Below are positions 2,646 through 62,642 of a DNA stretch of 64,000 nt, piece after piece; the first letter of the stretch is position 1; every line of letters begins with the position of its first letter. Both the position numbers and the translations under genes were made by a program. Under the pieces are notes generated by a model. That model was not told where the DNA came from, did not search any database, and saw nothing but the letters and a program-made list of their open reading frames with translations. The stretch is from Phyllobates terribilis (Eukaryota): NCBI RefSeq assembly GCF_046119375.1, contig NW_027362773.1, positions 110,608,001 through 110,672,000 of the forward strand. The letters run 5' to 3'.

Positions 2646-3444
2646 TGTGGCATCAGCATCTCTGCCCCCTGACAGGCAGAGACGCCGTCCCCCTTACCGC
2701 CGCGCTCCTGGCCCGGCGTCTTCCGGCTCTCTTGCTGCTGCCGGCGCGCGCAGCTTCCCGGGCACTGTGCTTAGGGCGCGCTCCTTCCCTCTTAAAGGGG
2801 CCGCGTGCGCCGTCCTAAGGAGTCCCCGGCCAATGGCCGGAGGACTTCTCATATAAAAGGCACCTCCTCCAAAATGGAGGAGCCCGTGCAAGGTTGTAGC
2901 ATTGTATTCTAAACTCTGCTTCATCCCTCAGGGCCCGCTGCTAGTCTGACTACCAGTCCAGTCCACCAGCCTGACTACCAGTCCGCCAGCCTGACTAATA
3001 GTCCAGTCGGCCAGCCTAGTACACTCTCCAGCCCGACGGTCTGCCTATGGTCCAAACCCGTCAGTCTGTCTATGGGCCAGGCTTGCCTGCCTACCCGGAG
3101 AACGTACCAGTCACCTGCCGTGCCTACCAGCCAGCCTACCTGGAGGCTCCGGGCAGTTACCCGTGGTGTCTGCCAGTCCGTCTACCCGGATCACCCGTCA
3201 GCCTGCCTGCCGTGCTCATCTGCTGTACTGGTCAGTCCCAGCCTTCTGACCCGTGGGAGTCACCTGCTCTCATACAAGGACTGGCCCAGAGTAGCACCTG
3301 GTCCCTCTGCTCGGTCCTTCCCTGGTTCACGGAGTCGATTGAGCCGCCGTGCGACCTTGGTCAGTCCGAGTTGATACCTAGTTACGCCCCTCTGGTCCCT
3401 CCTTGCACCGCAGCACAGAGGTTCCACCACCCGGATCCGTAACA
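2646..3444 (+). repeat. 5' LTR (799 bp) with CCAAT (about 2830) and TATAAAA (2852-2858)
   Basis: Starts TGTGGCATC, ends CCGTAACA, and is co-linear with 9137-10008. Confidence 0.95.
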
Positions 3445-3446
3445 GT

Positions 3447-3456
3447 TTGCACGGGC
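3447..3456 (+). promoter_or_regulatory. Non-tRNA primer-binding site TTGCACGGGC, complementary to LTR 2882-2891 (putative self-priming)
   Basis: No TGG-type tRNA PBS follows the LTR. The 10-mer is a perfect reverse complement of GCCCGTGCAA, 30 nt downstream of the TATA box. Confidence 0.75.
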
Positions 3457-3457
3457 C

Positions 3458-5898
3458 ATGGAACCCGGTGGCCCTCAGGCCCCTTCGCTTGCTGACCTGT
3501 ACCAGGAGGTTTCTCGTGTTATGCACACGCCCGGGCTAAGCGGCGTGTGCGTGGGATTGGTAGTGATTCCACTGGACCGTGCCGGAGAGTGAATGCCTGG
3601 AGGGGCGTGACTAAGTATTCACCCGATCCGACCAGGGTCGCACGACGGCATACGACGCCAGTGCACCAAGGAGGAACCGAGCAGAGGGACCAGGTGCTAC
3701 TCCAGGACAGACCCCGGACACGGCTGTTGACCCACACAGGGGAATACAGGAACAGGCTGGTAGGCTGGCACACAGACTGGAGGGTATAGGCAGGCACGAC
3801 TGGTATGCAGGCAGGCGGGTATGCAGGCAGGGGGGTAAAGGCAAGCACAGCTAGAGTGCAGACAGGGAGGCACTAGCAGGTAGGAACACAGGCGGGATAG
3901 AACCCAGTACACACCGGGACTCAGGAACAATACAGGCAGAGGGTTACAGGCAAGCACAGCTAGAGTGCAGACAAGGCTGAGCAGGGAGGACAGGGCTCTG
4001 TTCACACGGAACAGACAGGAAGGGAAAGACAGAGCCAGATACTCACACAGTATTTGCAGAGACAACAAGCAGGAGTTAGGTACGAGTTCAGACTCTGCAG
4101 AAAAAGGAAGGGAACGGACATAGAGGCAAAACAGGTAAAGGACAGGAGAGAGTTCAGACTGGAACTGAGTGTACGGAGGAGACCGACACTGCAGAGGGAT
4201 ACAGGAGCGGGTCTGGGAATACGGCCCCCAGAGAGGCGGAACGAACAGGCAAGGAGCGTGTTCAGACAGGACAGACCAGACACAGGAGCGGGTCTAGGAA
4301 ATCGGCCACTAGAAGGCGGAGCGAACAGGCAAGGAGCGTGTTCAGACAGGACAGACCAGACACAGGAGCGGGTCTAGGAAATCGGCCACTAGAAGGCGAG
4401 AGGAACAGGCTAGGAGCGTGTTCAGACAGGTCAGACAAGATACAGGAACGGGTCTAGGTAATCGGCCCCTAGAAGGCAGGAGGAACAGGCTAGGAGCGTG
4501 TTCAGACAGGACAGACAAGAGAACACAGAAAGGACTCAGTTCAGACACGGGAACTAATACCGAAAAGCAGGAGACATACAGGACTCAGTTCAGACACGGG
4601 AGCTGATACCGCAAAGCAGGAGACATACAGGACTCAGTTCAGACAGGCCTGGAAATACAGCCTCCAAGAAAGGCAGACAAGGAAACAAAGAACGGGACCT
4701 GGCACCTTCAGAGTGCAAGCACCCACTGAAGGAAACACTATGCTCAGGCAGGGATAGAAGGGAGCTGCTGAGCTATATACCAAGTGACAGACAGCAATAG
4801 GCTGAGGACGCACAAGGGGTGTGACCCACAGCAGGTACAAAAGGCAGGAAGTGATCGGGCGCCGCCCTTAAGCAGCAGAAACAGACACAAACAGACAGCA
4901 TGGAGGGAAGCCAGAGAGACATTCTGGACAGGAGATCAAGTGCGCCCTCTTGCACAGTGGGAGATGGACCACCATGCAAGGACGCCGCCAGGTATGTTAC
5001 ATCTCGTCAGAGATCCCAACAGGAAAGCATCCTGACCTACCTGTGTTCTGTCAACTCTCGCCGGGACACGCTGTCCGTCCCACCTGTGTCCACCTCGAGC
5101 CGAGCGACACCCGCTCTGACGGCGCCTCTGCCTACCAGTGCCACGGCTTCCAGCTCTGGACCCCGGTTCTCTGTGCCTCCTCGTTTTGGGGGTGACCCCG
5201 TCTTATGTCGGGGTTTTCTGAACCAGTGAACGCTGCACTTTGAACTACTGGCACATCAGTTTCCCTCCGACTGGGCCAAGGTGGCGTTCATCATGTCTCA
5301 CCTCACCGGGGAAGCATTGGCATGGCTAAACCCTCTATGGGAGAGAGGGGATCCCCTGGTGTCCAATCTTCCGGCTTTCCTCACTGCCTTCCGGAGGGTT
5401 TTCGATGAGCCCGGACGAAGGACTTCTACTGCCTCCTCATTGCTCCGTCTCCGCCAAGGGAGTCTCACCGTGGGCCAGTATGCCATACAATTCCGTACCC
5501 TCACTTCTGAGCTAGCCTGGAACAACGAGGCCCTGGTGTCCACCTTCTGGGAGGGTCTTTCCGGACGGATTAAGGACGAGCTAGCCGGCCGGGACATTCC
5601 TACCACGCTGGATGACCTGGTGTCACTAGCTACCCGGATTGACATCCGTTTCTTGGAACGTGCTAAGGATACTACCCGGGAGAGAAGATTTCCTCGTCTT
5701 GCTCCTGTTTTCCAGAAACCTGCCTCCTAACCAGCAACTCCCCGGGCACGCTCGCCCGAACCCATGCAGATCGACCATACCAAGATGGTCAAGTCTCGCC
5801 AAGAAACACGCCGAGCCGAGGGGAGCTGTTTCTACTTTGGTAGTAAGGAGCATCTGATCCGTTCCTGTCCGGTGAAGCCGGGAAACGCCAGTGTCTAG
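3458..5898 (+). pseudogene. Gypsy gag (PEG10/RTL1-like capsid plus degenerate CCHC knuckle), interrupted by a solo LTR and by stops/frameshift
   Basis: ATG at 3458 (MEPGGPQAPSLADLYQEVS|RQRSQQ...) rejoins across 3517-5001. Motifs PRFGGDP..CRGFLNQ and AFIMSHLTGEALAW; knuckle CFYFGSKEHLIRSC; TAG at 5896-5898. Confidence 0.9.
3517..5001 (-). mobile_element. Solo LTR (1485 bp) of a related Gypsy family, inserted antisense into gag
   Basis: TG...CA ends, perfect 5-bp TSD TCTCG (3512-3516 / 5002-5006), a U5-like block homologous to the host LTR, and an internal 80-bp repeat x4 at about 4199-4515. Confidence 0.92.
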
Positions 5899-5922
5899 GA
5901 CCGCTCTGAGAGGTCGTCCTAG
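5880..5922 (+). promoter_or_regulatory. -1 ribosomal frameshift signal: slippery G GGA AAC plus downstream stem
   Basis: Heptamer 5880-5886 is in the gag frame, followed by an 8-nt spacer and stem CTAGGAC (5895-5901) / GTCCTAG (5916-5922). Pol is in the -1 frame. Confidence 0.85.
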
Positions 5923-8900
5923 GCAAGAGTAAATCCTCTCCGTTCTTGACTTTATCCGTTTCTATTTCCTGTGGAGAGAACCGCTTCTTTGAAACCGCCC
6001 ACCTGAATTCCGGAGCCGCTGGGAATCTCATTTCTCAGTCCCTTGTAGAGAAGTATCAGATTCCCACCAAACCTCTGGCTGAATCATTGGCAGTCGCTTC
6101 CGTGGATGGAAGACTCCTTCCGGTTACCATCTTGCTCGTCACAGAGCCTGTAACCCTTCAGGTGCGAATGCTGCACTCGGAGAGGATCTCCTTCCATGTG
6201 CTATCCGGACTCTCTCACTCCCTTTTGCTAGGCTTACTCTGGCTGCCGAGACATGAACCCGTTCTGAATTGGTGATCCGGTGAGGTGCTCCGTTGGGGGC
6301 AGGATTGCCATGAGACCTGCTTGGTTCCGGTTTGCCCGGCTCGACCTCAGTCTACTCCGGCTAATTTACCTGGTCTACCGGCACCTTACTGGTCCTATGA
6401 AGATGTCTTCGACAAGAAGGAAGCAGAGACACTGCCACCTCATAGGCCATATGATTGCCCTATCGACCTGGTACCTGGTGCCACTCCACCCCGTGGGGGT
6501 ATCTACCCCTTGTCGTTGGCCGAAACCCGGGCCATGTCAGAGTACATCGAAGAAAATCTGGCTAGGGGATTCATCCAGAAATCTACCTCCCCGGCTGGAG
6601 CTGGATTCTTCTTCGTAAAAAAAGAAAGACGGTTCACTACGCCCCTGTATTGATTATAGGGGACTCAACCAGATTACTATAAAAAATAAATACCCCCTGC
6701 CGCTCATCTCGGAGCTGTTCGACCGCCTTAAAGGCGCGAAGATCTTCACCAAGCTCGATCTTCGTGGGGCATATAACTTGGTCCGGATCCGCCAAGGAGA
6801 CGAGTGGAAGACGGCATTCAATACCCGGGACGGCCACTATGAATACCGTGTGATGCCCTTCGGCCTCTGTAATGCTCCAGCAGTCTTTCAAGAACTAGTT
6901 AATGACATCTTCCGTGACCTCTTATATTCATGCGTGGTGGTGTACCTGGACGACATCTTGGTCTTCTCTCCGGATCTACCCACACACCGGAGGGATGTTC
7001 GTCAGGTCCTGCTTAGGCTCAGGCAGAATCACCTATACGGAAAATTTGAGAAATGCCTCTTTGAGCAGACTTCTCTTCCGTTCCTGGGCTATATTATCTC
7101 TAAGATTGGTCTACGGATGGACCCAGAGAAGGTCTCTGCCGTCTTAAAGTGGCCCTGACCGGAGGGGTTGAAGGCGATTCAGCGATTCCTGGGCTTCGCT
7201 AACTATTACTGCCTCTTCATCCCCCATTTCTCTTCCCAGACTGCACCCATCTCTGCGCTCACCCATAAGGAAGCAAATCCTAAGGAATGGACGTCCGAAG
7301 CGGAGGAGGCCTTCCTCTCCTTAAAACAAGCCTTCTCTTCTGCTGCACCGTCTGGATTGCTACAAACAGTTCTTTCTGGAGGTTGATGCTTCCTCTTCCG
7401 GAGCCGGAGCGGTGCTCACCCAGAAATCTCCGTCCGGTAGAATGGTAACCTGCGGCTTCTTCTCCAAGCTTTTCTCCTCGTCCGAGCGCAACTATTCCAT
7501 AGGAGACCGAGAACTGCTAGCCATCAAATTGGCGCTGGAGGAGTGGCGTTACCTGCTAGAGGGGGATCTGCACCCAGTGGTCATCTACACTGACCACAAA
7601 AATCTGGCATATCTACAGAATGCCCAAAGACTCAATCCGCGTCAGGCCAGGAGGTCTTTGTTCTTCATCCGTTTCAACTTTACCCTACATTACCGTCCTG
7701 CGGACAAGAATGTTACAGCCGACACTTTGTTCCGATCCTTCCTGTCTTACGATCAAGAGGAGGAGCATATGCATATCATCGATCCCTCCAAAGTGATGGA
7801 CGTGGCTCCCTTGGACCTGTCTTGTCTCCCACCCGGTAAGACGTTTGTAGCGGTTCCGGATTGTAAGAAGGTTCTTCACTGGGGTCATTCATCTAAACTA
7901 GCCGGCCATGCTGGCCAGAGGAAGACCTTCCTGCTCATTACCCGGCATTACTGGTGGCCTTCCCTGTGCAAGGATATTGTAGACTTCGTCACGGCCTGTT
8001 CATCCTGTGCCCACAACAAGGTTCCCAGACATATTCCAGCCGGCCGTCTCCTGCCTCTTCCCGTACCTGCTGCCCCGTGGCAACACATTGCTATGGATTT
8101 TATTACCGAGCTCCCTGTTTCTGCCGGTTGTACTTTCATTTGGGTGGTCGCTGACCGCTTTTCTAAAATGGCCCACTTTATCCCTCAGCCTGGTCTCCCG
8201 TCTGCATCTGTGCTGGCTAAGGACTTCATCCATCACATCTTTCGTCTCTACGGCCTTCCCCTCCACATTGTGTCTGATCGCGGGGTCCAGTTTAGTTTGC
8301 GCTTCTGGAGAGCTACGTGTAAGCTGCTGGATGTCTCCCTGGATTTCTCCTCTGCTTATCATCCTCAATCCAATGGCAAAGTGGAATGTATCAACCAGAT
8401 CTTTACCAGCTTCCTCCGGCACTTCGTCAATGCTCAGCATACCGATTGGGTAGAGCTCCTACCATGGGCCGAGTTCTCCTATAACAACCATGAGAGCGAA
8501 TCTTCTTCCAAGTCTCCGTTCTTTGTGGTCTACGGTCAACATCCCCTGATTCCGTTTCCCGTCTCCGCTTCAGTGGACAATCCTGCCGCGGAGTCTCTGG
8601 TCAGCGAATTTTCCACCATTTGGGAGGACACTAGGTCCACACTTCTTCAATCCTCCGAGCGAATGAAGAGACATGCGGACAAGAGACGTCTGGACCCACC
8701 TCAATTCCGTCCGGGAGACAAGGTTTGGCTCTCCTCCAAACATGTTCGTCTCAAAATACTCTCCTATAAGTTGGGTCCACGGTTCATCGATCTATTTGAA
8801 GTCCTCAAGCAAATCAATCCAGTGGCCTAAAAGTTAAAACTCCCGGCCACTTTATGGATTCCCAACTCCTTCCACGTATCTCTCCTCAAACCAGTTGTTC

Positions 8901-9105
8901 TTAATTATTTTTCCGACGATCCAGGTACCTCCCCAGCTCCGGTCTCCGCTGAGGACGTGTATGAGAACATTCTGGCCACCAAGAGGGTAAGAGGAAAAAC
9001 CTTTTTTCTGGTGGATTGGAAGGGGTTTGGCCCAGAGGAGAGAACTTGGGAACCCAGGGAGAACATCCACGCCCCGTTTCTTCTTAAAAAAAAAATTTCA
9101 AGCCT
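5880..9105 (+). pseudogene. Gypsy pol: protease, RT, RNase H, integrase, chromodomain (several stops and frameshifts)
   Basis: PR LNSGAAGN (catalytic D to N); [24 protein letters not shown]; RH ELLAIKLALEEWR; IN HSSKLAGH..CSSC with MDF/SDRG/GKVE; chromodomain ...FLVDWKGFGPEERTWEP (8957-9100). Confidence 0.95.
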
Positions 9106-9121
9106 AAAAAAGAGGGGGCAT

Positions 9122-9133
9122 AAAGGAGGGGGG
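9122..9133 (+). promoter_or_regulatory. Polypurine tract
   Basis: AAAGGAGGGGGG, 3 nt before the 3' LTR. Confidence 0.85.
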
Positions 9134-9136
9134 TAC

Positions 9137-10008
9137 TGTAGCATCGGCGTCTCTGCCCCCTGACAGGCAGAGACGCCGTCTCCCTTACCGCCGCGATCCT
9201 GGCCCGGCGTCTTCCGGCCCTCCTGCTGCTGCTGCCGGCGTGCGCAGCTTCCTGGGCACTGTGCTTAGGGCGCGCTCTCCCTCCATCTTAAAAGGGCCGC
9301 GCGCCGTCCTAAGGAGTCCCCGGCCAATGGCGGGAGGACTTCTCATATAAAAGGCACTTCCTCCAAAATGGAGGTGCCCGTGCAAGGTTGTAGCTTTGTG
9401 TTCTCAACTCTGCTTCAGCCCTCAGGTCCCACTGCTAGTCTCACTACCAGCCCAGTCCACCAGCCTGACTACCAGTCCAGTCCACCAGCCTGACTACCAG
9501 TCCAGTCCGCCAGCCTGAATACCAGTCCAGTCCGCCAGCCTGAATACCAGTCCAGTCCGCCAGCCTGACTACCTGTCTCCGCCAGCCAAGTACACTAGCC
9601 AGCCCGACGGTCTGCCTACAGTCCAAACCCGCCAGTCTGTCTATGGGCCAGGCTTGCCTGCCTACCCGGAGAACGTACCAGTTACCTGCCGTGCCTACCA
9701 GCCAGCCTACCTGGAGGCTCCAGCCAGTTACTCGTGGTGTCTGCCAGTCCGTCTACTCGGATCACCCGTCAGCCTGCCTGCCGTACTCATCTTCTTCAGT
9801 CCCTGCCTTCTGACCCGTGGGAGTCACCTGCTCTCATACAAGGACTGGCCCAGAGTAGCACCTGGTCACCCTGCTCGGTCCTTCCCTGGTTCATGGAGTC
9901 AATTGAGCCGCCGTGCGACCTTGGTCAGCCCGAGTTGATACCTAGTTACGCCACTCTGGTCCCTCCTTGCACCGCAGCACAGAGGTTCCACCACCCGGAT
10001 CCGTAACA
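9137..10008 (+). repeat. 3' LTR (872 bp)
   Basis: TGTAGCATC...CCGTAACA; carries extra copies of an internal 23-bp repeat compared with the 5' LTR. Confidence 0.95.
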
Positions 10009-10745
10009 CTGTTAAGAGGAGACTTTGTGCAGCAGGCCTTCATGGTAAAATAGCTGCTAGGAAACCACTGCTAAGGACAGGCAACAAGCAGAAGAGACTT
10101 GTTTGGGCTAAAGAACACAAGGAATGGACATTAGACCAGTGGAAATCTGTGCTTTGGTCTGATGAGTCCAAATTTGAGATCTTTGGTTCCAACCACCGTG
10201 TCTTTGTGCGACGCAGAAAAGGTGAAAGGATGGACTCTACATGCCTGGTTCCCACCGTGAAACATGGAGGAGGAGGTGTGATGGTGTGGGGGTGCTTTGC
10301 TGGTGACACTGTTGGGGATTTATTCAAAATTGAAGGCATACTGAACCAGCATGGCTACCACAGCATCTTGCAGTGGCATGCTAGTCCATCCGGTTTGCGT
10401 TTAGTTGGACCATCATTTATTTTTCAACAGGACAATGACCCCAAACACACCTCCAGGCTGTGTAAGGGCTATTTGACCAAGAAGGAGAGTGATGGGGTGC
10501 TACGCCAGATGACCTGGCCTCCACAGTCACCAGACCTGAACCCAATCGAGATGGTTTGGGGTGAGCTGGACTGCAGAGTGAAGGCAAAAGGGCCAACAAG
10601 TGCTAAGCATCTCTGGGAACTCCTTCAAGATTGTTGGAAGACCATTTCCGGTGACTACCTCTTGAAGCTCATCAAGAGAATGCCAAGAGGGTGCAAAGGA
10701 GTCATCAAAGCAAAAGGTGGCTACTTTGAAAAACCTAGAATATAA
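10009..10745 (+). pseudogene. Tc1-A transposase C-terminal half (DD34E)
   Basis: LWSDESKFE...VKHGGGGVMVWGCF...[11 protein letters not shown]...[12 protein letters not shown]. Confidence 0.95.
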
Positions 10746-10908: not shown

Positions 10909-11503
10909 TATATTACACAGTCCCTATATAATACACAACCCCTACATAATACAGCACTATACACTACACAATACCTATATCATACACAACACCTATATAT
11001 TGCACAGCTCCTATATAATACACAGATCCCTATAATACACAGCCCCTATACATAATACACAGCCCCTATATATAAAACACAGCTCCTATATATAATACAC
11101 ATCACATACAAATAATACACAGCCCCCATATAGAGCACACACCTCCTATATAATGCACATCCCCTAAATAATACACAGCTGTTATATACAATACACACAT
11201 CCTATATATAATACACAGCCACCTATATGCAACACACAGCCCCTATATAGTACACATCACTATATAATACACAGCCCCTAGATAATACACAGCTCATATA
11301 TACTACACAGCACCTATATAATACACAGCCCCTATATAATACACATCCCTACATATAATACACAGCACCTATATATAACACACAACTCCTCTATAATGCA
11401 CAACCCTTATAATACACAGCTTCTATATAATACACAGCCCCCTATATGTAATACACAGCTCTATACAACACACAGCCCTTAAATATAAAACACACAGCAC
11501 CTA
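10909..11503. repeat. TA-rich satellite segment
   Basis: Degenerate TATAATACACAGCCCC units. Confidence 0.9.
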
Positions 11504-13152
11504 CAGTTATATGAAAAAGTTTGGGCACCCCTATTAATCTTAAGCTTAATGTTTTATAAAAATTGGTGTTTTTGCAACAGCTATTTCAGTTTGATATATG
11601 TAATAACTGTTGGACACAGTAATGTTTCTGCCTTGAAATGAGGTTTATTGTACTAACAGAAAATGTGCAATCTGCATTCAAACAAAATTTGACAGGTGCA
11701 TAAGTATGGGCACCCTTATCATTTTCTTGTTTTAAATACTCCTACCTACTTTTTACTGACTTACTAAAGCACTTTTTTTGGTTTTGTAACCTCATTGAGC
11801 TTTGAACTTCATAGCCAGGTGTATGCAATCATGAGAAAAGCTACTTAAAGTGGCCGCTTGCAAGTTGTTCTCCTGTTTGAATCTCCTCTGAAGAGTGGCA
11901 TCATGGGCTCCTCAAAACAACTGTCAAATGATCTTAAAACAAAGATTATTCAACATAGTTGTTCAGGGGAAGGATACAAAAAGCTGTCTCAGAGATTTAA
12001 CCTGTCAGTTTCCACTGTGAGGAACATAGTAAGGAAATGTAAGAACACAGGGACAGTTCTTGTTAAGGCCAGAAGTGGCAGGCCAAGAAAAAACATCAGA
12101 AAGGCAGAGAAGAAGAATGGTGAGACCAGTCAAGGACAATCCTCAGACCACCTCCAGAGAGCTGCAGCATCAACTTGCTGCAGATGGTGTCACTGTGCAT
12201 CGGTCAACTATACAACGCACTTTGCACAAGGAGAAGCTGTATGGGAGAGTGATGCGAAAGAAGCCGTTTCTGCAAGCACGCCACAAACAGAGTCTGCTGA
12301 GGTATGCAAAAGCACATTTGGAGAAGCCAATTTCTTTTTGGAAAAAGGTCCTGTGGACTGATGAAACCAAGATTGAGTTGTTTGGTCATACAAAAAGGCG
12401 TTATGCATGGCGGCAAAAAAACACAGCATTCCAAGAAAAACACTTGCTACCCACAGTAAAATTTGGTGGAGGTTCCATCATGCTTTGGGGCTGTGTGGCC
12501 AATGCCGGCACCGGGAATCTTGTTAAAGTTGAGGGACGCATGGATTCCACTCAGTATCAGCAGATTCTTGACAATAATGTTCAAGAATCAGTGACAAAGT
12601 TGAAGTTACGCAGGGGATGGATCTTTCAGCAAGACAATGATCCAAAACACCGCTCCAAATCTACTCAGGCATTCATGCAGAGGAACAATTACAATGTTCT
12701 GGAATGGCCATCCCAGTCCCCAGACCTGAATATCATTGAACATCTGTGGGATCATTTGAAGAGGGCTGTCCATGCTCGGCGACCATCAAACTTACTGAAC
12801 TGGACTTGTTTTGTAAAGAGGAATGGTCAAAAATACCTTCATCCAGGATCCAGGAACTCATTAAAAGCTACAGGAAGCGACTAGAGGCTGTTATTTTTGC
12901 AAAAGGAGGATCTACTAAATATTAATGTCACTTTTCTTGTGAGGTGCCCATACTTATGCACCTGTCAAATTTTGTTTGAATGCAGATTGCACATTTTCTG
13001 TTAGTACAATAAACCTCATTTCAAGTCAGAAACATTACTGTGTCCAACAGTTATTACATATATCAAACAGAAATAGCTGTTGCAAAAACACCAATTCTTA
13101 TAAAACATTAAGCTTAGATTAATAGGGGTGCCCAAACTTTTTCATATAACTG
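11504..13152 (+). mobile_element. Tc1-like transposon B, full length (1649 bp) with long TIRs; transposase 11903-12925 has two frameshifts
   Basis: TA|CAGTTATATGAAAAAGTTTGGGCACCCC ... GGGGTGCCCAAACTTTTTCATATAACTG|TA; MGSSKQLSNDLK..., [23 protein letters not shown]. Confidence 0.96.
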
Positions 13153-13290
13153 TATATATAATACATAGTTCTATATATCACACACAGCCCATATATATAA
13201 TACACAGCTCTGATATATAATACAGCCCCTATACAATACATAGTCCTTATATAATACAGCCTCTATATATAATCACAGACCCTATATAAT
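13153..13290. repeat. TA-rich satellite segment
   Basis: Degenerate units. Confidence 0.8.
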
Positions 13291-13771
13291 AAATTCACCA
13301 AAAAAATACAACTACAATTTTATGTTTATTAGTATCATTAAAAATTCAATTGTAACTGACCCTCAAAAAACAAACAAAAAACACCAAAAATGGTTAAAAA
13401 GCTGTAAAGTATTCTCAGCCCAAAAAAAGATTCTCCTAAAGTGGGGAAGGGGGCAATGGTGGGAGTCAATTATCAGTGTAAGGGGACACAAGAGGGTAAT
13501 CACCATTCAATCCCCAAGATCAATGGGCCACCACTACTGTACCTGCTGAGTACAGGGGTGGTAAATAAAAAAATAGGAAATTAATGGGTACTCATTTCCT
13601 AACAGTCAGTTATCTTAATGGCCCAGATACTCAAGAGGATATCAATCATCAAACAATCAATAATACTGTATATAGATCTCAATCTGGCTGTAAATACAGA
13701 ACAAGTGTATGTGTATTAGTAACAAAAACGATTGCAGGGAATATTCCTGCATCTCTCTCCAAACCAGAAAA

Positions 13772-13920
13772 TACCATATTTTTCGGACTATAAGACACAC
13801 TGTATATATATGTGGGGTGTGGGGGGAGCGGTAGCGGTGGAGGAGAGGGGCACAGGAGGCAGCAGCCCCGCGCTGCAGCCTACACTGTCCCCGCTGCTAA
13901 AGAAAATGAATATTCACTGA
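13772..13920. mobile_element. Possible pogo/Tc2-type non-autonomous element terminus (fragment)
   Basis: TA|CCATATTTTTCGGACTATAAGAC resembles pogo/Tigger-like termini; no second end found. Confidence 0.4.
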
Positions 13921-13943
13921 TCCCCACGCCCCCGCTGCTCACC

Positions 13944-15385
<1,442 letters not shown>

Positions 15386-15394
15386 TCACAGCAA

Positions 15395-15844
15395 GCCCTA
15401 TATATAATACACAGCCCCTATATAATACACAGTTCCTATATATAATACACAGCCCATATATACAATACACAGTACCTGCATATAATACACAGCACTTATA
15501 TATAACACACAGCTCCTATATTATACACAGCTCATATATAATAGACAGCTCCTATATATAATACACAGCCTCTATATGTAATACACAGCTTCCTATATAT
15601 AACATGCAGCCCTGGATAAAATACACAGCCCCTATATAATAAATATTCTATATATCACACACAGCCCTTATAATACACATCCATATATTTAATACACAGC
15701 CCCTGGATATAATACACAACTCCTATATATAATACAACCCCTATATAATACACAATCTTATACAATACACAGATCCATATATATAATACACATCCCCTAT
15801 ATATAATACACAGATCTATATATAATATGCTGCCCCTATAGATA
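15395..15844. repeat. TA-rich satellite segment
   Basis: Degenerate units. Confidence 0.88.
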
Positions 15845-17464
<1,620 letters not shown>

Positions 17465-17833
17465 TAATACACAGCTACTATATATCACACAGCCCCTATA
17501 TATAATACACAGCTGCTATACAATACACAGATACCTATTTATAATACGCAGCTCCTATATATAATACACAATACCTACATACAATACACAGCACCTATAT
17601 AATACACAGCCCTATATAATAAAAAACCCCTACAAATAATACACAGCTCCCTATATAGTACACAGCCCTATATATAATGCACAGCCCTATATATAATACA
17701 CAGCCCTAAATATAATACACAGCTCCCTATATACAATACATACATATAATACCTATATGTAACAGACAGCCCCTATATATAATACACAGCCCCTATATAT
17801 AATACACAGCTCCCTATATACAATACATACATA
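17465..17833. repeat. TA-rich satellite segment
   Basis: Degenerate units. Confidence 0.88.
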
Positions 17834-19098
17834 CACTGCTCAAAAAAATAAAGGGAACACTCAAATAACACATCCTAGATCAGAATGAATTAAATATTCT
17901 CATTGAATACTTTGTTCTGTACAAATTTGAATATGCTGACAACAAAATCACATAAAAATCATCAATGGAAATCAAATTTATTAACCAATGGAAGCCTGGA
18001 TTTGGCGTCACCCCCAAAATTAAAGTGGAAAAACACACTACAGGCTGATCCAACTTTTTGACTTTTAAAACAAGCCAAAATGAGGCTCAGTATTGTGTGT
18101 GGCCTCCACGTGCCTGTATGACCTCCCTACAACGCCTGGGCATGCTCCTGATGAGGTTGCGGATGGTCTCCTGTGGGATCTCCTCCCAGACCTGGACTAA
18201 AGCATCCGCCAACTCCTGGACAGTCTGTGGTGCAACGTGACGTTGGTGGATGGAGCGAGACATGATGTCCCAGATGTGCTCAATCGGATTCAGGTCTGGG
18301 GATCGGGCGGGCCAGTCCATAGCTTCAATGCCTTCATCTTGCAGGAACTGCTGACACACTCCAGCCACATGAGGTCTGGCATTGTCCTGCATTAGGAGGA
18401 ACCCAGGGCCAACCGCACCAGCATATGGTCTCACAAGGGGTCTGAGGATCTCACCTCGGTACCTAATGGCAGTCAGGCTACCTCTGGTGAGCACATGGAG
18501 GGCTGTGCGGCCCTGCAAAGAAATGCCACAGAACACCAGGATTGGCAAAGTTGCCACTGGCGCCCTGTGCTCTTCACAGATGAAAGCAGGTTCACACTGA
18601 GCACATGTGACAGACGTGACAGAGTCCCCAGACCTGAATCCGATTGAGCACATCTGGGATATCATGTCTCGCTCCATCCACCAACGTCACGTTGCACCAC
18701 AGACTGACCAGGAGTTGGCGGATGCTTTAGTCCAGGTTTGGGAGGAGATCCCACAGGAGACCATCCGCAACCTCATCAGGAGCATGCTCAGGCGTTGTAG
18801 GGAGGTCATACAGGGACGTGAAGGCCACACACAATACTGAGCCTCATTTTGACTTGTTTTAAGGACATTACATCAAAGTTGGATCAGCCTGTAGTGTGTT
18901 TTTCCACTTTAATTTTGGGGGTGACTCCAAATCCAGGCCTCCATTGGTTAATAAATTTGATTTCCATTGATGATTTTTATGTGATTTTGTTGTCAGCACA
19001 TTCAACTTTGTACAGAACAAAGTTTTCAATGAGAATATTTCATTCATTCTGATCTAGGATGTGTTATTTGAGTGTTCCCTTTATTTTTTTGAGCAGTG
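17834..19098. mobile_element. Tc1-like element E: fold-back derivative with about 470-bp inverted arms
   Basis: TA|CACTGCTCAAAAAAATAAAGGGAACAC ... GTGTTCCCTTTATTTTTTTGAGCAGTG|TA. The transposase C-terminus (SPDLNPIEH...GGHTQY) is present on both strands. Confidence 0.93.
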
Positions 19099-22000
19099 TA
19101 TAATACCTATATATAACACACAGCCCCTATATATAACACACAGCCCCTATATAATACACAGCCCCTATATGTAACACAGCCCCTAAATAATACATACATA
19201 TAATACCTATATATAACACACAGCCCATACATATAACACACATCCTCTATATAATACACAGCCCCTATATATAACACCTCTGGATCAACTTTAGCAATTA
19301 CAGAACTAACAGGTCGAACTTGATGGACGCAAGTCTTTATTCGGCTTTACTAACTATGTAACTATGTAACACACAGTCCCTATATATAATACATACATAT
19401 AATACCTATATATAACACACAGCCCCTATATATAACACACAGCTCCCTATATACAATACATACATATAATACCTATATATAATACACAGCCCCTATATAT
19501 AACACACAGCCCCTATATATAACACACAGCCCCAGTATATAATACACAGCCCTATAAATAATACACAGCCCGTATATATCACACACAGCCCCTATATATC
19601 ACACAGCCCCTATATATAACACACAGCCCCTATATATCACACACAGCTCCCTATATATCACACACAGCCCCTATACATATATATATCACACAGCCCCTAT
19701 ATTATATATATATATATCACACAGCTCCCTATATATCACACACAGCCCCTATATCTCACACACAGCTCCCTATATATCACACACAGCTCCCTATATATAT
19801 ATATATCACACAGCTCCCTATATATCACACACAGCTCCCTATATATAACACACAGCCCCCTATATATAACACACAGCCCCCTATATATCACACACAGCTC
19901 CCTATATATAACACACAGCCCCTATATATCACACACAGCTCCCTATATATATATATATATCACACAGCTCCCTATATATCACACACAGCCCCTATATATA
20001 TCACACACAGCCCCTATATATATCACACACAGCCCCTATATATCACACACAGCTCCTATATATAACACACAGCCCCTATATATATATCACACACAGCCCC
20101 TATATATCACACACGGCCCCTATATATCACACATGACCCCTATATATATATCACACACAGCTCCCTATATATCACACACAGCTCCTATATATCACACACA
20201 GCTCCCTATATATCACACACAGCTCCCTATATATCACACACAGCCCCTATATATCACACACAGCCCCTATATATCACACACAGCCCCTATATATCACACA
20301 CAGCTCCCTATATATCACACACAGCCCCTATATATATCACACACAGCCCCTATATATATCACACACAGCCCCTATATATCACACACAGCTCCCTATATAT
20401 CACACACAGCTCCTATATATAACACACAGCCCCTATACATATATATATCACACAGCCCCTATATATATCACACACAGCCCCTATATATCACATACAGCCC
20501 CTATATATATATCACACACAGCCCCTATATATCACACACAGTCCCTATATATATATCACACACAGCCCCTATATATATCACACACAGCTCCCTATATATC
20601 ACACACAGCCCCTATATATATCACACAGCCCCTATATATATCACACACAGCCCCTATATATCACATACAGCCCCTATATATATCACACACAGCTCCTATA
20701 TATCACACACAGTCCCTATATATATCACACAGCCCCTATATATATATCACACACAGTCCCTATATATCACACACAGCCCCTATATATCACACACAGAACC
20801 TATATATATCACACAGCCCCTATATATATCACACACAGCCCCTATATATATCACACACAGCTCCCTATATATCACACACAGCCCCTATATATATCACATA
20901 CAGCCCCTATATATATCACACACAGCCCCTATATATCACATACAGCCCCTATATATCACATACAGCCCCTATATATATCACACACAGCCCCTATATATCA
21001 CACACAGCCCCTATATATATCACACACAGCCCCTATATATCACACACAGTCCCTATAAATCACACACAGCCCCTATATATATCACACACAGCCCCTATAT
21101 ATCACACACAGCTCCTATATATAACACACACAGCCCCTATATATCACACACAGCTCCTATATATATCACACACAGCTCCCTATATATCACACACAGTCCC
21201 TATAAATCACACACAGCCCCTATATATATATCACACACAGTCCCTATATATCACATACAGCCCCTATATATCACACACAGCCCCTATATATATCACACAC
21301 AGCCCCTATATATCACACACAGTCCCTATAAATCACACACAGCCCCTATATATATCACACACAGCCCCTATATATCACACACAGCTCCTATATATAACAC
21401 ACACAGCCCCTATATATCACACACAGCTCCTATATATATCACACACAGTCCCTATATATCACACACAGTCCCTATAAATCACACACAGTCCCTATAAATC
21501 ACACACAGCCCCTATATATATCACACACAGCTCCTATATATAACACACACAGCCCCTATATATCACACACAGCTCCTATATATATCACACACAGCTCCCT
21601 ATAAATCACACACAGCCCCTATATATATCACACACAGCCCCTATATATCACACACAGTCCCTATATATATCACACACAGCCCCTATATATATCACACACA
21701 GCCCCTATATATCACACACAGCTCCTATATATATCACACACAGCTCCCTATAAATCACACACAGCCCCTATATATATATCACACACAGTCCCTATATATA
21801 TCACACACAGCCCCTATATATCACATACAGCCCCTATATATCACACACAGCCCCTATATATATATCACACAGCCCCTATATATCACACACAGCCCCTATA
21901 TATCACATACAGCCCCTATATATATCACACACAGCTCCTATATATCACACACAGTCCCTATATATATCACACAGCCCCTATATATATATCACACACAGTC

Positions 22001-23053
22001 CCTATATATCACACACAGCCCCTATATATCACACACAGCCCCTATATATATCACACACAGCTCCCTATATATCACACACAGCCCCTATATATATCACATA
22101 CAGCCCCTATATATATCACACACAGCCCCTATATATCACATACAGCCCCTATATATCACATACAGCCCCTATATATATCACACACAGCCCCTATATATCA
22201 CACACAGCCCCTATATATATCACACACAGCCCCTATATATCACACACAGTCCCTATAAATCACACACAGCCCCTATATATATCACACACAGCCCCTATAT
22301 ATCACACACAGCTCCTATATATAACACACACAGCCCCTATATATCACACACAGCTCCTATATATATCACACACAGCTCCCTATATATCACACACAGTCCC
22401 TATAAATCACACACAGTCCCTATAAATCACACACAGCCCCTATATATATCACACACAGTCCCTATATATCACATACAGCCCCTATATATCACACACAGCC
22501 CCTATATATCACACACAGTCCCTATAAATCACACACAGCCCCTATATATATCACACACAGCCCCTATATATCACACACAGCTCCTATATATAACACACAC
22601 AGCCCCTATATATCACACACAGCTCCTATATATATCACACACAGTCCCTATATATCACACACAGTCCCTATAAATCACACACAGCCCCTATATATATCAC
22701 ACACAGCCCCTATATATCACACACAGCTCCTATATATAACACACACAGCCCCTATATATCACACACAGCTCCTATATATATCACACACAGCTCCCTATAA
22801 ATCACACACAGCCCCTATATATATCACACACAGCCCCTATATATCACACACAGTCCCTATATATATCACACACAGCCCCTATATATATCACACACAGCCC
22901 CTATATATATCACACACAGCCCCTATATATCACACACAGCTCCTATATATATCACACACAGCTCCCTATAAATCACACACAGCCCCTATATATATCACAC
23001 ACAGTCCCTATATATATCACACACAGCCCCTATATATCACATACAGCCCCTAT
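19099..23053. repeat. Large homogeneous satellite (TATATCACACACAGCCCC)n, 16-22 bp units, with a ~1.2-kb higher-order duplication
   Basis: Read directly. About 20825-21216 recurs essentially identically at +1200. Confidence 0.97.
19278..19370 (+). mobile_element. 5'-truncated CR1-type LINE 3' tail
   Basis: GGTCGAACTTGATGGACGCAAGTCTTTATTC followed by a (CTATGTAA)n tail, the typical amphibian CR1 3' end. Confidence 0.75.
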
Positions 23054-41968: not shown

Positions 41969-52439
<10,471 letters not shown>

Positions 52440-53976: not shown

Positions 53977-54637
53977 TGTTACGGATCCGGGTGGTGGAAC
54001 CTTTGTGCTGTGATGCAAGGAGGGACCAGAGGGGCGTAACTAAGTGCCTACCCGGACTGACCCTGGTCACACGGCGGCTTAGTCGACTCCGTGAACCAAG
54101 GAGGGACCGGGAAGGTGAACCAGGTGCCACTTTGGGACCGACCTTGTGTGAGAGCAGGCGACTTCCACGGGACTGATGGCCGAAGCCGACAGGCACAGCA
54201 GATGAACACGGCTGGTAGACAGGCAGGAGATGCGGGTAGACAAGCAGGCGGGCACAGCAGATAGACAGGCAGGTGGGCATGGCTGATAGGCAGGTGGGCA
54301 CAGATGATAGACAGGCAGGTGAGCACGGGAACCTGAGGGCTGGAGAGAGTATTAGTACAGAAACAACAACGCACAGGCACCTCCATATTGGAGTAGGTGC
54401 CTTATATAAGGGCAGTCCTCCGGCTATTGGCCGGGGAATCTTTAGGACGGCGCGCGGCCCCTTTAAGAGGGAGGGAGCGCACGTGCGTGTGCCCTAAGCA
54501 CAGTGCACGGGGAACTGCGCGTGGTGCGCGCACCCCGGGCAGATGCAGCAGGGGAGCCAGAGGATGCCGCACCGGGACTGCGGCGGTGAGGGGATTGGCA
54601 TCTCTGCCCAGCAGTAGGCAGAGACGCCGACGCTACA
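53977..54637 (-). mobile_element. Solo LTR (661 bp) related to the 2646-10008 Gypsy LTRs, co-oriented with ovol1
   Basis: TGTTACGGATCCGGGTGG...GACGCTACA, perfect TSD CATAC; retains CCAAT (about 54427) and TATATAA (about 54405). Confidence 0.95.
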
Positions 54638-54907: not shown

Positions 54908-56574
54908 CAGCGGGTCAAATAAGTATTGAACATGTCACCAATTTTCTAAGTAAATATACAGTACAGACCAAAAGTGTGCCAAGAGTGTGCAAAGCAGTCA
55001 TCAAAGCAAAAGGTGGCTACTTTGAAGAACCTAGAATATAAGACATATTTTCAGTTGTTTCACACTTTTTTGTTAAGTATATAATTCCACATGTGTTATT
55101 TCATAGTTTTGATGCCTTCAGTGTGAATGTACAATTTTCAAAGTCATGAAAATACAGAAAAATCTTTAAATGTGAAGGTGTGTCCAAACTTTTGGTCTGT
55201 ACTGTATTTCTAAAGGTGATATTGACATGAAATTCTCACTAAATGTCGGCAACAACCCATCCAACCCACACAGGCAAAGAAATCAAACCATAGATGTCCA
55301 TAAATTATGTGTAATAATGAGAAATGACACAGGGAAAAAGTATTGAACACACTTACTGAAATGTAATTAATATTTCATACAAAAACCTTTGTTGGTGACA
55401 ACAGCTTCAATACTCCTCCTGTATGGAGAAACTAGTCGTAGGTATTGCTCAGGTGTGATTTTGGCCCATTCTTCCACACAAACACTCTTCGAATTCTGAA
55501 AGTCCCGTCGGCTCCTTCTATGAACTCTGAGCTTTAGTTCCTTCCATAAATTTTCTATTGGATTCGGATCAGGTGATTGCCTGTGTCATTCTAGCAGCTT
55601 TATTTTCTTTCTCTGAAACCTATTGAGAGTTTCCTTGGCTGGGTGTTTGAGATCATTGTCTTACTGAAATGACCACTCTGGTTTCATCTTCATCATCCTG
55701 GTAGATGGCAGCAGATTTTTTTCAAGAATGTCTCAGTACATTTGTCCATTAATCTTTCCTTTAATTATATGAAGTTTGCCAGTGCTGTATGCTGAAAAAC
55801 AGCCCCACACAATGATGTTCCCACCACCAAACTTCACTGTTGGTGTGGTGTTTTTGGGGGGTTTTGCAGTGCCCTTTGGCCTCAAAACATGGTGTCTATT
55901 ATGGAATCCAAAGAGTTAAATTTTGGTCTCATCTGACCAGACTATATTCTCCCAGTATTTCACAGGCTTGTGTAAATGTTGTTCAGCAAATTTTAAACGC
56001 GCTTGAACATGTTTTTTGTTCAGCCATTAAATCTTGCGTGGTGAGCATGCATACAGGCCATGGAGGTTGAGTGAATTACTTTTAGTTTTCTTTGAAAAAT
56101 TTTTACCTGCTGATTCCAGGTCTTTCTGTAGCTCTCCAAGGATGGTCCCTGGCTCTTGGACAACTCTTCTGATAATTCTTTTCACTCCTTTGTCTTAGAC
56201 CTTGTGGGGAGCACCTGGTTGTGGCCGCTTTATGGTGAAATTATGTTCTTTCCACTCCCCGGATTATGACCCCAACAGAGCTCACTGGAACAGCCAGTAG
56301 TTTAGAAATTCTTCTGTAACCAATGCCATCAGTATATTTTGCAACAATAAGGTTGCAAATGTTTTGAGATGGCTCACTGGTTTTACCCATCATGAGATGA
56401 TTCTTGTGTGGCACCCTAGTAGTGAGACACCTTTTTATAGGCCATCCGTTGAACCAGCTGATATTATTTTTCACTAAGTGGCAGGATTGCTTTCTAATTA
56501 CTGTTAGATTTCAGCTGGTGTCATGACTTTTCATGGCTTTTTGCACCTCTCTTTCTTCATGTGTTCAATACTTT
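54908..56574 (-). mobile_element. Tc1-like transposon G, decayed
   Basis: TA|CAGCGGGTCAAATAAGTATTGAACA, partial inverted end GTGTTCAATACTTT; MMGKTSEPSQNICNLIV... Confidence 0.88.
54959..55204 (+). mobile_element. 246-bp internally deleted Tc1-A family element nested in the TIR of Tc1-G
   Basis: TA|CAGTACAGACCAAAAG joined directly to the transposase tail and an intact right end ...GGTCTGTACTG|TA. Confidence 0.9.
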
Positions 56575-59693: not shown

Positions 59694-60439
59694 TTAAAAC
59701 TGCAAGTCCCAACACAACCGTTAGTTTACTGCCGACTACATGGGCGCAGTATAGTCAGAATATGGCCTGGAGTATGCAAATCGCATACTTGCAGTCACAT
59801 GACCGCCCCCTCCTGGCGAATCATTACAGCGTGAGATGTGAGGCTTTACAAGTCTGCAATCACATAGAGCGACTGCAGACTTGTAGCCTAAGGCCGGACA
59901 ACCCCTTTAAATATCAGGAGCAGAACCCTGCAACAGCTGTTGTTCTTAGTGGGGGTCCGCTCGATGACAAAAAGCAGAGGAAGCAAGCATAGACATGGAT
60001 GTAACACACAGACAATATTAACGTCAGGATTTACATTGTCTACACTGATATTTTTAAATGTTCATTTGCTGCCTAAATACAAAGATAAGCAACATTCTAA
60101 ATATTCTCCATTAAAAATGTTCTAACATTTTGCTGCCCCAGTGTCTGCAATTCCTTTATCTAGCTCAACGCTTTGCAAAAATGTTACAAATCCGTCAGCG
60201 CTCCTGCTCAGTTCTAATGGCTCTTGGCTATCATCCTCCCTTCTCTTAGTATTAGAAATAACAGCAGGGAGGTGGTTGTACCAGAACTCCAAGGTATGAA
60301 GAGGGGAGAAAGTATATTTACAGTTTCAGGGAGGGTAGAGAAAACAAACTATTGAAGAGGAGGAAAGTGCATGAAGTGGAAATAAGTAAAATACTGGAGC
60401 CTTGTTGATGCGGGAACTAAAGAATACACAGACGGCACA

Positions 60440-61601
60440 TCTAGCTCATATTACTGGGAGAGGCAGAGTTATCATATCCAGCCTTTATTACCGGGAGAGC
60501 CAGAGTTATCATATCCAGCCTTTGTTACTGGGAGAGACAGCGTTATCATATCCAACCTTTGTTACTGGAAGAGACGAAGTTATCATATCCAGCTTTTATT
60601 ACTGGGAGAAACATAGTTATCATATCCAACCTTTATTACTGGGAGAGGCAGAGTTATCATATCCAGCCTTTATTACTGGGAGAGACAGAGTTATCATATC
60701 CAGCCTTTATTACTGGGAGAGACAGAGTTATCATATCCAACCTTTATTACTGGTAGAGTCAGTTCTTATATCCAGCCTTTATTACTGGGAGAGACAGTTA
60801 TCATATCCAGCCTTTATTACTGGGAGAGACAGAGTTATCATATCCAACCTTTATTACTGGTAGAGTCAGTTCTTATATCCAGCCTTTATTACTGGGAGAG
60901 ACAGTTCTCATATCCAGCCTTTATTACTGGGAGAGACAGAGTTATCATATCCAGCCTTTATTACTGGGAGAGACAGAGTTATCATATTTAACCTTTATTA
61001 CTGGGGGAGACAGAGTTATCATATTTAACCTTTATTACTGGGAGAGACAGGGTTTTCATATTCAGCTTATATTACTGGAGGAGACAGAGTTATCATATCC
61101 AGCCTTTATTACTGGGAGAGACAGAGTTATCATATTTAACCTTTATTACTGGGAGAGACAGGGTTTTCATATTCAGCTTATATTACTGGAGGAGACAGAG
61201 TTATCATATCCAGCCTTTATTACTGGGAGAGACAGAGTTATCATATCCAGCCTTTATTACTGGGAGAGACAGAGTTATCATATTTAACCTTTATTACTGG
61301 GAGAGACAGGGTTTTCATATTCAGCTTATATTACTGGAAGAGACAGAGTTATCATATCCAGCCTTTGTTACCAGGAGAGACAGAATTATCATACCCAGCC
61401 TATATTACTGGGAGAGACAGAGGTATCATATCCAACCTTTATTACTGGGAGATACTGAGTTATCATATCCAGCCTTTATTACTGGAAGATATAAAGTTAT
61501 CATATCCAACTTGTATTACTGGGAGAGACAGAGTTATCATATCTAGCCTTTATTACTGGGAGAGACAGAGTGATCATATTCAGCCTTTATTACTGGGAGA
61601 G
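60440..61601. repeat. 37-bp minisatellite (ACTGGGAGAGACAGAGTTATCATATCCAGCCTTTATT)n, about 31 copies
   Basis: Read directly. Confidence 0.96.
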
Positions 61602-62642
61602 ACACTCCCACAAGAGGAAGATCTGAAACTGGTATCAGGCTGCAAATGTGGCACCCCAGGGGTCTGGTTTCCACAGTAACAGCAATGTTATGTCTGAGAG
61701 CAGGTGGGAGGTCTCTTGGTCAGGAATCCTATGCATGCCACACCTCCTGCCCAGTCCTGGGAGGGGAAGGACTTCCCCTATATAAACCTGGGGCTGAGGC
61801 AGGGTTAGTCAGAAGAGTAGAGAGAAGAAGAGAAGCAGTAATAGGAAAGAAAGATCAGGAGCTCTGTGGGAGTCGTGCTAAGAGGAGGTCAGGGCTGGAA
61901 GCTGTAGAGCTCGCCCTGATTGAAGATTTCTTACCAGACCCGGAGTCCGAGGCTGTGGGGACTAACTCCTACCCAGCAGCAGAAACCGACCGGCAGGGGA
62001 TTTCAGGTTCTCTGGCCCAGAAACCCGAAGGCTCGGTCACAAGAGTGGGACCAGCACCGCCGTCGTGGAGCGGAAGCTACTAGAAGGCCCCGAGTCACCG
62101 GCCATACGGGTGAGCACCACACGGTACACTCAGGGACGTGGGCTACCTTTACCCGCCTCTAGCAAGGTAGCCAGAAGAGTACAATTAGTTGGGGAGGCCT
62201 ACAACTCCGCCTGGCCAAGGGGGATCCCATCAGCTCAAGGACTGACCAGGCCCCGACCGCTAGCCAGTACTCCGGGAGGGTCTATCTTTGTCACCAGTAA
62301 AGACCCTGAACTACACCGCATCGTCTCTGAGTGATTCCTGCTACCCCCATCATCCACGTCGGCTGCCCTGAGGCCATACCCCTCCCGTTGGGGGTTATAC
62401 CATCCACGCTGCACCATCCTTCCACCGGCCTCAGCGGTCTGCCCTGCAGCGGCAGCTCCATAGCTGCATTCAACGGGTGGCGTAGTCGTCCTACATCTAC
62501 TGCTAATATACCGCCACTTAGTCTGACTCCCTGGGCACGGACCGGGTCACCGCCACGAGACTACTACCCCTATCAGATCCGGCTCCGGGTAGTCCCTGCG
62601 TGCGCAACGCTACATCACATAGGCCCAGGGCGCGTCAACTTT

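Follow-up and report, generated by a model that had tools for sequence, protein, structure and literature searches.

Probable Tf1-type self-priming of a chromodomain Ty3/gypsy lineage in Phyllobates terribilis, with covarying primers and candidate priming scars in the genome

A lineage of Ty3/gypsy retrotransposons in the genome of Phyllobates terribilis very probably primes reverse transcription in the manner of Tf1, with the first 10 nt of its own RNA. The lineage was traced from one element in a 64,000-nt stretch of DNA (contig NW_027362773.1, positions 110,608,001 to 110,672,000), referred to here as the window. An earlier note on this DNA had inferred that the family of this element is self-priming, and the inference is now supported by seven covarying pairs of primer and primer-binding site (PBS) and by error hot spots in a second family. 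Self-priming itself is an established mechanism, which has been proven for Tf1 and which published work regards as a general trait of the Tf1/sushi group. The window family is an added member of this known self-priming group, with unusually good genomic support.

The window element is inserted on the forward strand between target-site duplications that differ by one mismatch (CTGCT, 2641–2645, and CTGTT, 10009–10013). The element belongs to a family designated A. Its 5′ LTR (2646–3444) begins with TGT and ends with ACA, and its 3′ LTR (9137–10008) is immediately preceded by a polypurine tract. The gag frame starts with the ATG at 3459 and is interrupted after 3516 by a 1,485-nt solo LTR of another family, family B, on the reverse strand (3517–5001, duplication TCTCG), which the earlier note had overlooked. 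The remaining gag, protease, RT, RNase H, integrase, SH3 and chromodomain sequences (5002–9136) are broken over several frames. Pfam matches gave the Ty3/gypsy order protease-RT-RNase H-integrase between the LTRs, together with the 5-bp duplication. The chromodomain (PF00385) at the integrase's C-terminal end passed the cut-off (E 1.2e-9) and a match to SH3_Tf2-1 fell slightly below it. Since the coding domains are spread over several frames the copy is dead, and since its LTRs are only 88–91% identical it is an old insertion. Other genomic copies carry gag without the nested LTR, and the joint 3511/5002 was present in contigs of all four public runs. The host site of the element is a copy of a Tc1/mariner transposase (Pfam DDE_3 and HTH_Tnp_Tc3_2; 2400–2645 and 10009–10745), and a related piece lies at 54969–55207. 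The window also holds a reverse-strand solo LTR of a subfamily designated A2 (53977–54637, duplication GTATG) and tandem arrays at 26–1500, 11000–23000, 47248–47484 and 60342–61669, with units of 36 nt, 20–22 nt, 29 nt and 37 nt.

As the earlier note had described, a tRNA-type PBS starting with TGG is missing behind the 5′ LTR. The LTR is followed by a GT spacer, the 10-mer TTGCACGGGC (3447–3456) and a C. This PBS is exactly complementary to GCCCGTGCAA at 2882–2891, 30 nt after the TATA box TATAAAA (2852–2858), and the same 10-mer is retained in the 3′ LTR (9376–9385). The 10-mer GCCCGTGCAA is the predicted self-primer and would form the 5′-terminal 10 nt of the transcript. In families A and A2 an inverted repeat lies between the TATA box and the predicted RNA start and overlaps the first primer bases (2859–2884 and 9353–9378 in the window element).

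Relatives of the element were collected from the same genome (10.57 Gb), and they yielded seven primer types: GCCCGTGCAA in family A, GCCTGTGCAA in subfamily A2, GCCTGAGCAT in family B, GCTAGAGTAT in family C, GCTTGAGTAT in family D, GCCTGAGTAT in family E and GCTTGTGTAT in family F. Each type matches at 10 of 10 positions with its own LTR only, and every PBS is 10 nt long and placed 2 nt past the LTR. The primers differ at up to 5 of the 10 positions, and the letters of the PBS change whenever those of the LTR change; the comparison of PBS and R start across subfamilies that the earlier note had proposed thus gave seven pairs with different letters. All seven primers start with GC. The LTR base directly before the primer (position −1, the first primer base being +1) is usually T, and the PBS is followed by C, with one exception among the PBS read. 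A TATA-like box lies 28–30 nt upstream of the primer in families A to E, and the family F primer stands behind a TA run. The seven primers do not represent seven independent origins, since they are descended from one ancestor.

At 29 other family A loci the PBS could be read in 24 and was exact in 18. Both sites were exact in 10 of the 18 copies in which both were read, and the others had scattered changes, as is expected for old copies. The 30-nt TATA spacing was the same in 22 of 23 family A matches. In subfamily A2 a PBS was present at 8 of 29 loci, and in seven of the eight it was TTGCACAGGC, opposite the R start GCCTGTGCAA. This compensating change of one base pair is weak evidence taken alone, there being a CpG on both sides. 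The solo LTR at 53977–54637 does carry GCCTGTGCGTT at the equivalent position, as the earlier note had reported, but the co-varying PBS that the note had predicted from it, AACGCACAGGC, was found in none of the eight copies. The prediction went wrong because GCCTGTGCGTT reflects a 3-nt loss at the R start that is private to this LTR, its relatives reading GCCTGTGCAAGGTTG.

The PBS of family B was forecast from the nested LTR before any copy of that PBS had been seen. In this reverse-strand LTR the predicted primer GCCTGAGCAT (4749–4740) lies 30 nt behind a TATA box at about 4779 and predicts the PBS ATGCTCAGGC, which was exact in 14 of 14 PBS-bearing ends among 29 family B LTRs. Four further primers came from distant families, whose gag and RT are 38–46% and 65–67% identical, respectively, to those of family A. 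At short loci of the distant families (DUF4939) the pairing was exact in 10 of 30, and 19 of the 30 gave no PBS call; at long loci of families C, E and F it was exact in 11 of 19, two had 8–9 of 10 bases and six gave no clear call. Family E has many dispersed copies (L128, L129 and L138 among them) with long open frames and LTRs that are 99.5–100% identical, and has therefore moved recently.

Family B is very young and non-autonomous. Its copies have LTRs of 1.3–1.6 kb with tandem repeats around an interior of about 2 kb that holds a broken piece of gag, and at least 6,340 LTR matches were found genome-wide (copies L031–L060, L152 and L153 among them). Its U5 is about 80% like that of family A and its primer is different. 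An enzyme-less passenger of this kind can keep its own primer, since the primer travels on the RNA itself.

The predicted folding of the leaders was variable. In the 635-nt leader of the window element the primer helix was part of the minimum-energy fold, with a mean probability of 0.95. The same was true of 8 of 12 whole leaders, with a mean probability of at least 0.9 in seven. The helix was missing from the predicted fold of four of the 12 (two of family C, one of family D and that of family F) and had a probability of 0.04 in a fifth leader of the 12; the leaders in which it failed are AU-rich (C, D and F). In the window element the U5 stretch GGTTCCA (3420–3426) can pair with 3460–3466, a possible flanking duplex of the Tf1 "pretzel" type. 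Candidate duplexes of 5–9 bp between U5 and the region behind the PBS could be drawn in eight leaders. Compared with shuffled sequences, these were significant (P<0.05) in two of the eight by strict pairing and in none of the eight when G-U pairs were allowed. The three-duplex "pretzel" of Tf1 is hinted at here, no more.

The young copies of family B also carry an excess of sequence changes at both ends of the primer. Genome-wide, T stands at −1 in 5,740 family B LTR matches and another base in 600; the first 100 listed of these 600 comprise 82 G, 18 C and no A. At the single control position, a T at −5, there were 0 variants genome-wide. Private changes in U3 occur at 0.18% per site, from which about 11 variants would be expected, and all five private changes at a T in U3 were T>C. 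In an unconditioned set of family B LTRs, G at −1 was seen in 2 of 29, both from one element. The G at −1 was unclustered on trees of 37 and 65–67 elements (11 changes against a shuffled mean of 11.0), although these trees are poorly resolved. Furthermore, copies with G and with T at −1 share otherwise identical haplotypes, and most of the −1 variants listed represent both LTRs of one element. We therefore conclude that the −1 change recurs during copying. In the old family A, G accounted for 15 of 30 independent events at −1, a modest excess, with a 17-copy cluster on contig C3 counted once. This cluster, 17 same-strand family A LTR matches within 795.0–830.0 Mb that have one rare variant in common, suggests a segmental amplification. 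In subfamily A2 there was no excess at −1 (G in 10 of 44 events), and the 5′ LTR of the window element itself has A there.

At the other end of the primer, 56 family B matches genome-wide have a base other than T at +10 (42 A, 13 C and 1 G). Most of these variants occur in both LTRs, and the PBS was unchanged in six of six readable copies. They are partly clustered on the tree of the R region (6 changes against 9.4 in shuffled data). Immediately after the primer, at +11, 9 of 60 (L154–L213) and 8 of 29 (L031–L060) family B LTRs have an additional A, which is unclustered on the trees. The changes at +10 and +11 both fit the addition of one surplus base at the end of a cut template. The changes at the two primer ends are likely scars that show where the RNA starts and where it is cut. 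Copying of the cap by reverse transcriptase is a known behavior, and the G at −1 is probably a copied cap, which would put the RNA start at the first base of the primer. Nothing on point regarding cap-copy scars or amphibian self-priming was found in the literature searched, although subscription journals may differ, and neither was any paper on self-priming of gypsy elements in Xenopus.

Exact-pattern searches revealed aberrant integrated copies in which an LTR end plus PBS runs directly into inverted U3, at five family B places and one family A/A2 place. Solo LTRs flanked by perfect 5-bp duplications make up three of the six (L127, L149 and L150, on contigs C1, C5 and C10); they read U3, G, primer, an inverted U5/R piece, primer, R and U5; the inner junction is common to L127 and L150. 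The other three are on contig C1. In L151, of subfamily A2, LTR, spacer and PBS are followed by inverted U3, and two U3 ends lie inside a CCTAC duplication. L147 has the same order and is cut short at one end. L148, of family B, is an inversion in which R-U5 of the 5′ LTR is turned around between primer and PBS and 17 nt of U3 are duplicated. In four of the six the junction base is C instead of the U3 base. These copies are consistent with template jumps by strands that ended with the PBS plus C; they are no proof of the model, since the junction C could be genomic.

In the mechanism that we propose, the 10 nt with which the capped RNA is predicted to begin would anneal to the PBS. Cleavage between bases 10 and 11, which by analogy with Tf1 is likely the work of the element's own RNase H, would free this 10-nt primer, and its extension would give minus-strand DNA. 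Some minus strands would run as far as the capped RNA end and acquire a C opposite the cap ahead of the first transfer. The changes at +10 and +11 would have arisen as errors at the template end left by the cut, and the constant C behind the PBS may be the complement of the cap, fixed at plus-strand transfer. We infer that +1 is the capped RNA start. A contig beginning near 2882 was not counted as an RNA start, since contigs of the four public runs cannot show starts.

Other explanations of the pairing were weighed. Matches of 10 bases do arise by chance within 1.5 kb, and a loose scan gave several in unrelated places. The chance of a given 10-mer in an 11-nt window is about 1e-5, however. This figure applies to each family; both sites have a fixed position, and the seven sequences differ. 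An accidental match confined to one old copy is refuted by the pairs in families A2, B and the distant families, and we regard it as vanishingly improbable. A host tRNA half or another small RNA might prime instead, the match to the LTR being incidental. Stretches of tRNA-Lys(TTT), the sole tRNA type compared, match 6–8 of the 10 primer bases, 7–8 at best (19 variants and one odd copy), and half-tRNA priming is known in copia lineages (PMC6317226). That source reports it in copia only, however, and the own LTR matches 10 of 10 bases in all seven types, with the PBS shifting along with the LTR. Furthermore, each of the seven PBS types starts with TTG, ATG or ATA and none with TGG, so that no mature tRNA 3′ end fits. 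The agreement of each of the seven PBS with its own LTR, behind a TATA-like box, rules out chance and makes tRNA priming very unlikely. The pairing of the 5′ end with the post-LTR site might also be structural, serving packaging, dimer formation or translational control at the gag ATG 2 nt beyond it, with priming by another route. The gag ATG does lie directly behind the PBS in A, A2 and B, and covariation by itself is evidence of pairing and not of priming. No alternative primer site adjoins the LTR, however, and the primer length and the 2-nt offset are constant; errors gather at +10/+11, the expected end of a cut template, and the aberrant copies are fused to inverted U3 exactly at the 10-mer. 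We therefore consider a purely structural role very improbable.

Even with self-priming correct, the G at −1 might not be a cap, which we think possible if unlikely. It could come from untemplated addition, from copying of the C behind the PBS or from a few successful sub-lineages shuffled by recombination. Tf1 RT readily adds untemplated bases (PMC3185545, PMC3035444), the C behind the PBS is genomic in all families and its copying would perfect an 11-bp inverted repeat, and support on the LTR trees is low. However, G is found in the two LTRs alike and on haplotypes that differ from those of T copies in nothing else, which points to the first strand transfer. The RNA start would lie at +1 under untemplated addition too, as it would in the copied-cap reading.

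The best RT relative of solved structure was Ty3, and the sole gag relative of solved structure was PEG10. Among the matches listed, the closest RT relatives were frog proteins (70–92% identity), followed by fish, fungal and plant elements. In an RT tree of 42 pieces (38 of 120 listed matches, picked by host and including no named Tf1/sushi reference, plus four from this genome), 24 vertebrate rows, with the window element among them, and 3 fungal rows grouped together (99/89), apart from the plant chromoviruses. Tf1 has a primer of 11 nt, unlike the predicted 10-nt primer here, which has G first and is supported by genomic evidence. The vertebrate Tf1/sushi group, sushi-ichi and its kin, was reportedly treated by Butler et al. 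in 2001. Like that group, the lineage described here is a vertebrate chromovirus with self-priming predicted from sequence and an RT that falls in a clade with fish, frog and fungal elements. The layout of the RT tree is that of the fungi/vertebrates cluster, which has been equated with the Tf1/sushi group (bioRxiv 10.1101/2022.12.06.519325), and the end of the LTR agrees with the motif CNTNACA of Sushi elements (PMC3601003). Self-priming has been described for, or as common to, this group in yeast and vertebrates (PMC6317226, bioRxiv 10.1101/2022.12.06.519325). The self-primed chromoviruses Tf1/Tf2 of Schizosaccharomyces pombe, Tj1 and Tosmo1-3 (PMC4600332, PMC5341516, bioRxiv 10.1101/2022.12.06.519325) are likewise chromodomain Ty3/gypsy elements with a post-LTR PBS complementary to the predicted RNA 5′ end and without a tRNA site; in Tf1/Tf2 the primer is cleaved by the RT/RNase H of the element (PMC5341516, PMC4600332). 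Self-priming has also been predicted for Tcn1-clade plant chromoviruses, by at least 10 complementary bases 0–5 nt after the 5′ LTR (PMC6317226). The element described here follows the same rule, whereas the hosts of the Tcn1 clade are plants and the prediction there is by complementarity alone. Seven covarying primers in one genome, an enzyme-less passenger with its own primer and error scars at the two primer ends were not found in the literature searched, and the scars and the fusion fossils are the part for which no counterpart was found there.

We see the chances as evenly balanced that the genome records priming at single-base resolution, the scars at −1 (from cap copying) and at +10/+11 (from the cut) mapping the two ends of a vertebrate self-primer with no RNA data. 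If this is true, about 1 in 12 family B copies would derive from a minus strand whose synthesis had continued across a primer left uncut, as far as the cap. Priming would therefore often involve two co-packaged RNAs acting in trans, or a double jump. The C that follows the PBS of all seven types would also be accounted for by cap copying, and integrated copies such as L127, L149 and L150 would represent fossilized minus-strand DNA with the primer linked to it. Vertebrate self-priming, in the accessible parts of the literature searched, rests on complementarity alone. Covariation over seven primers together with scars at the two primer ends provides independent genomic support in an animal, and offers a cheap test for other families that are claimed to be self-priming and have young copies.
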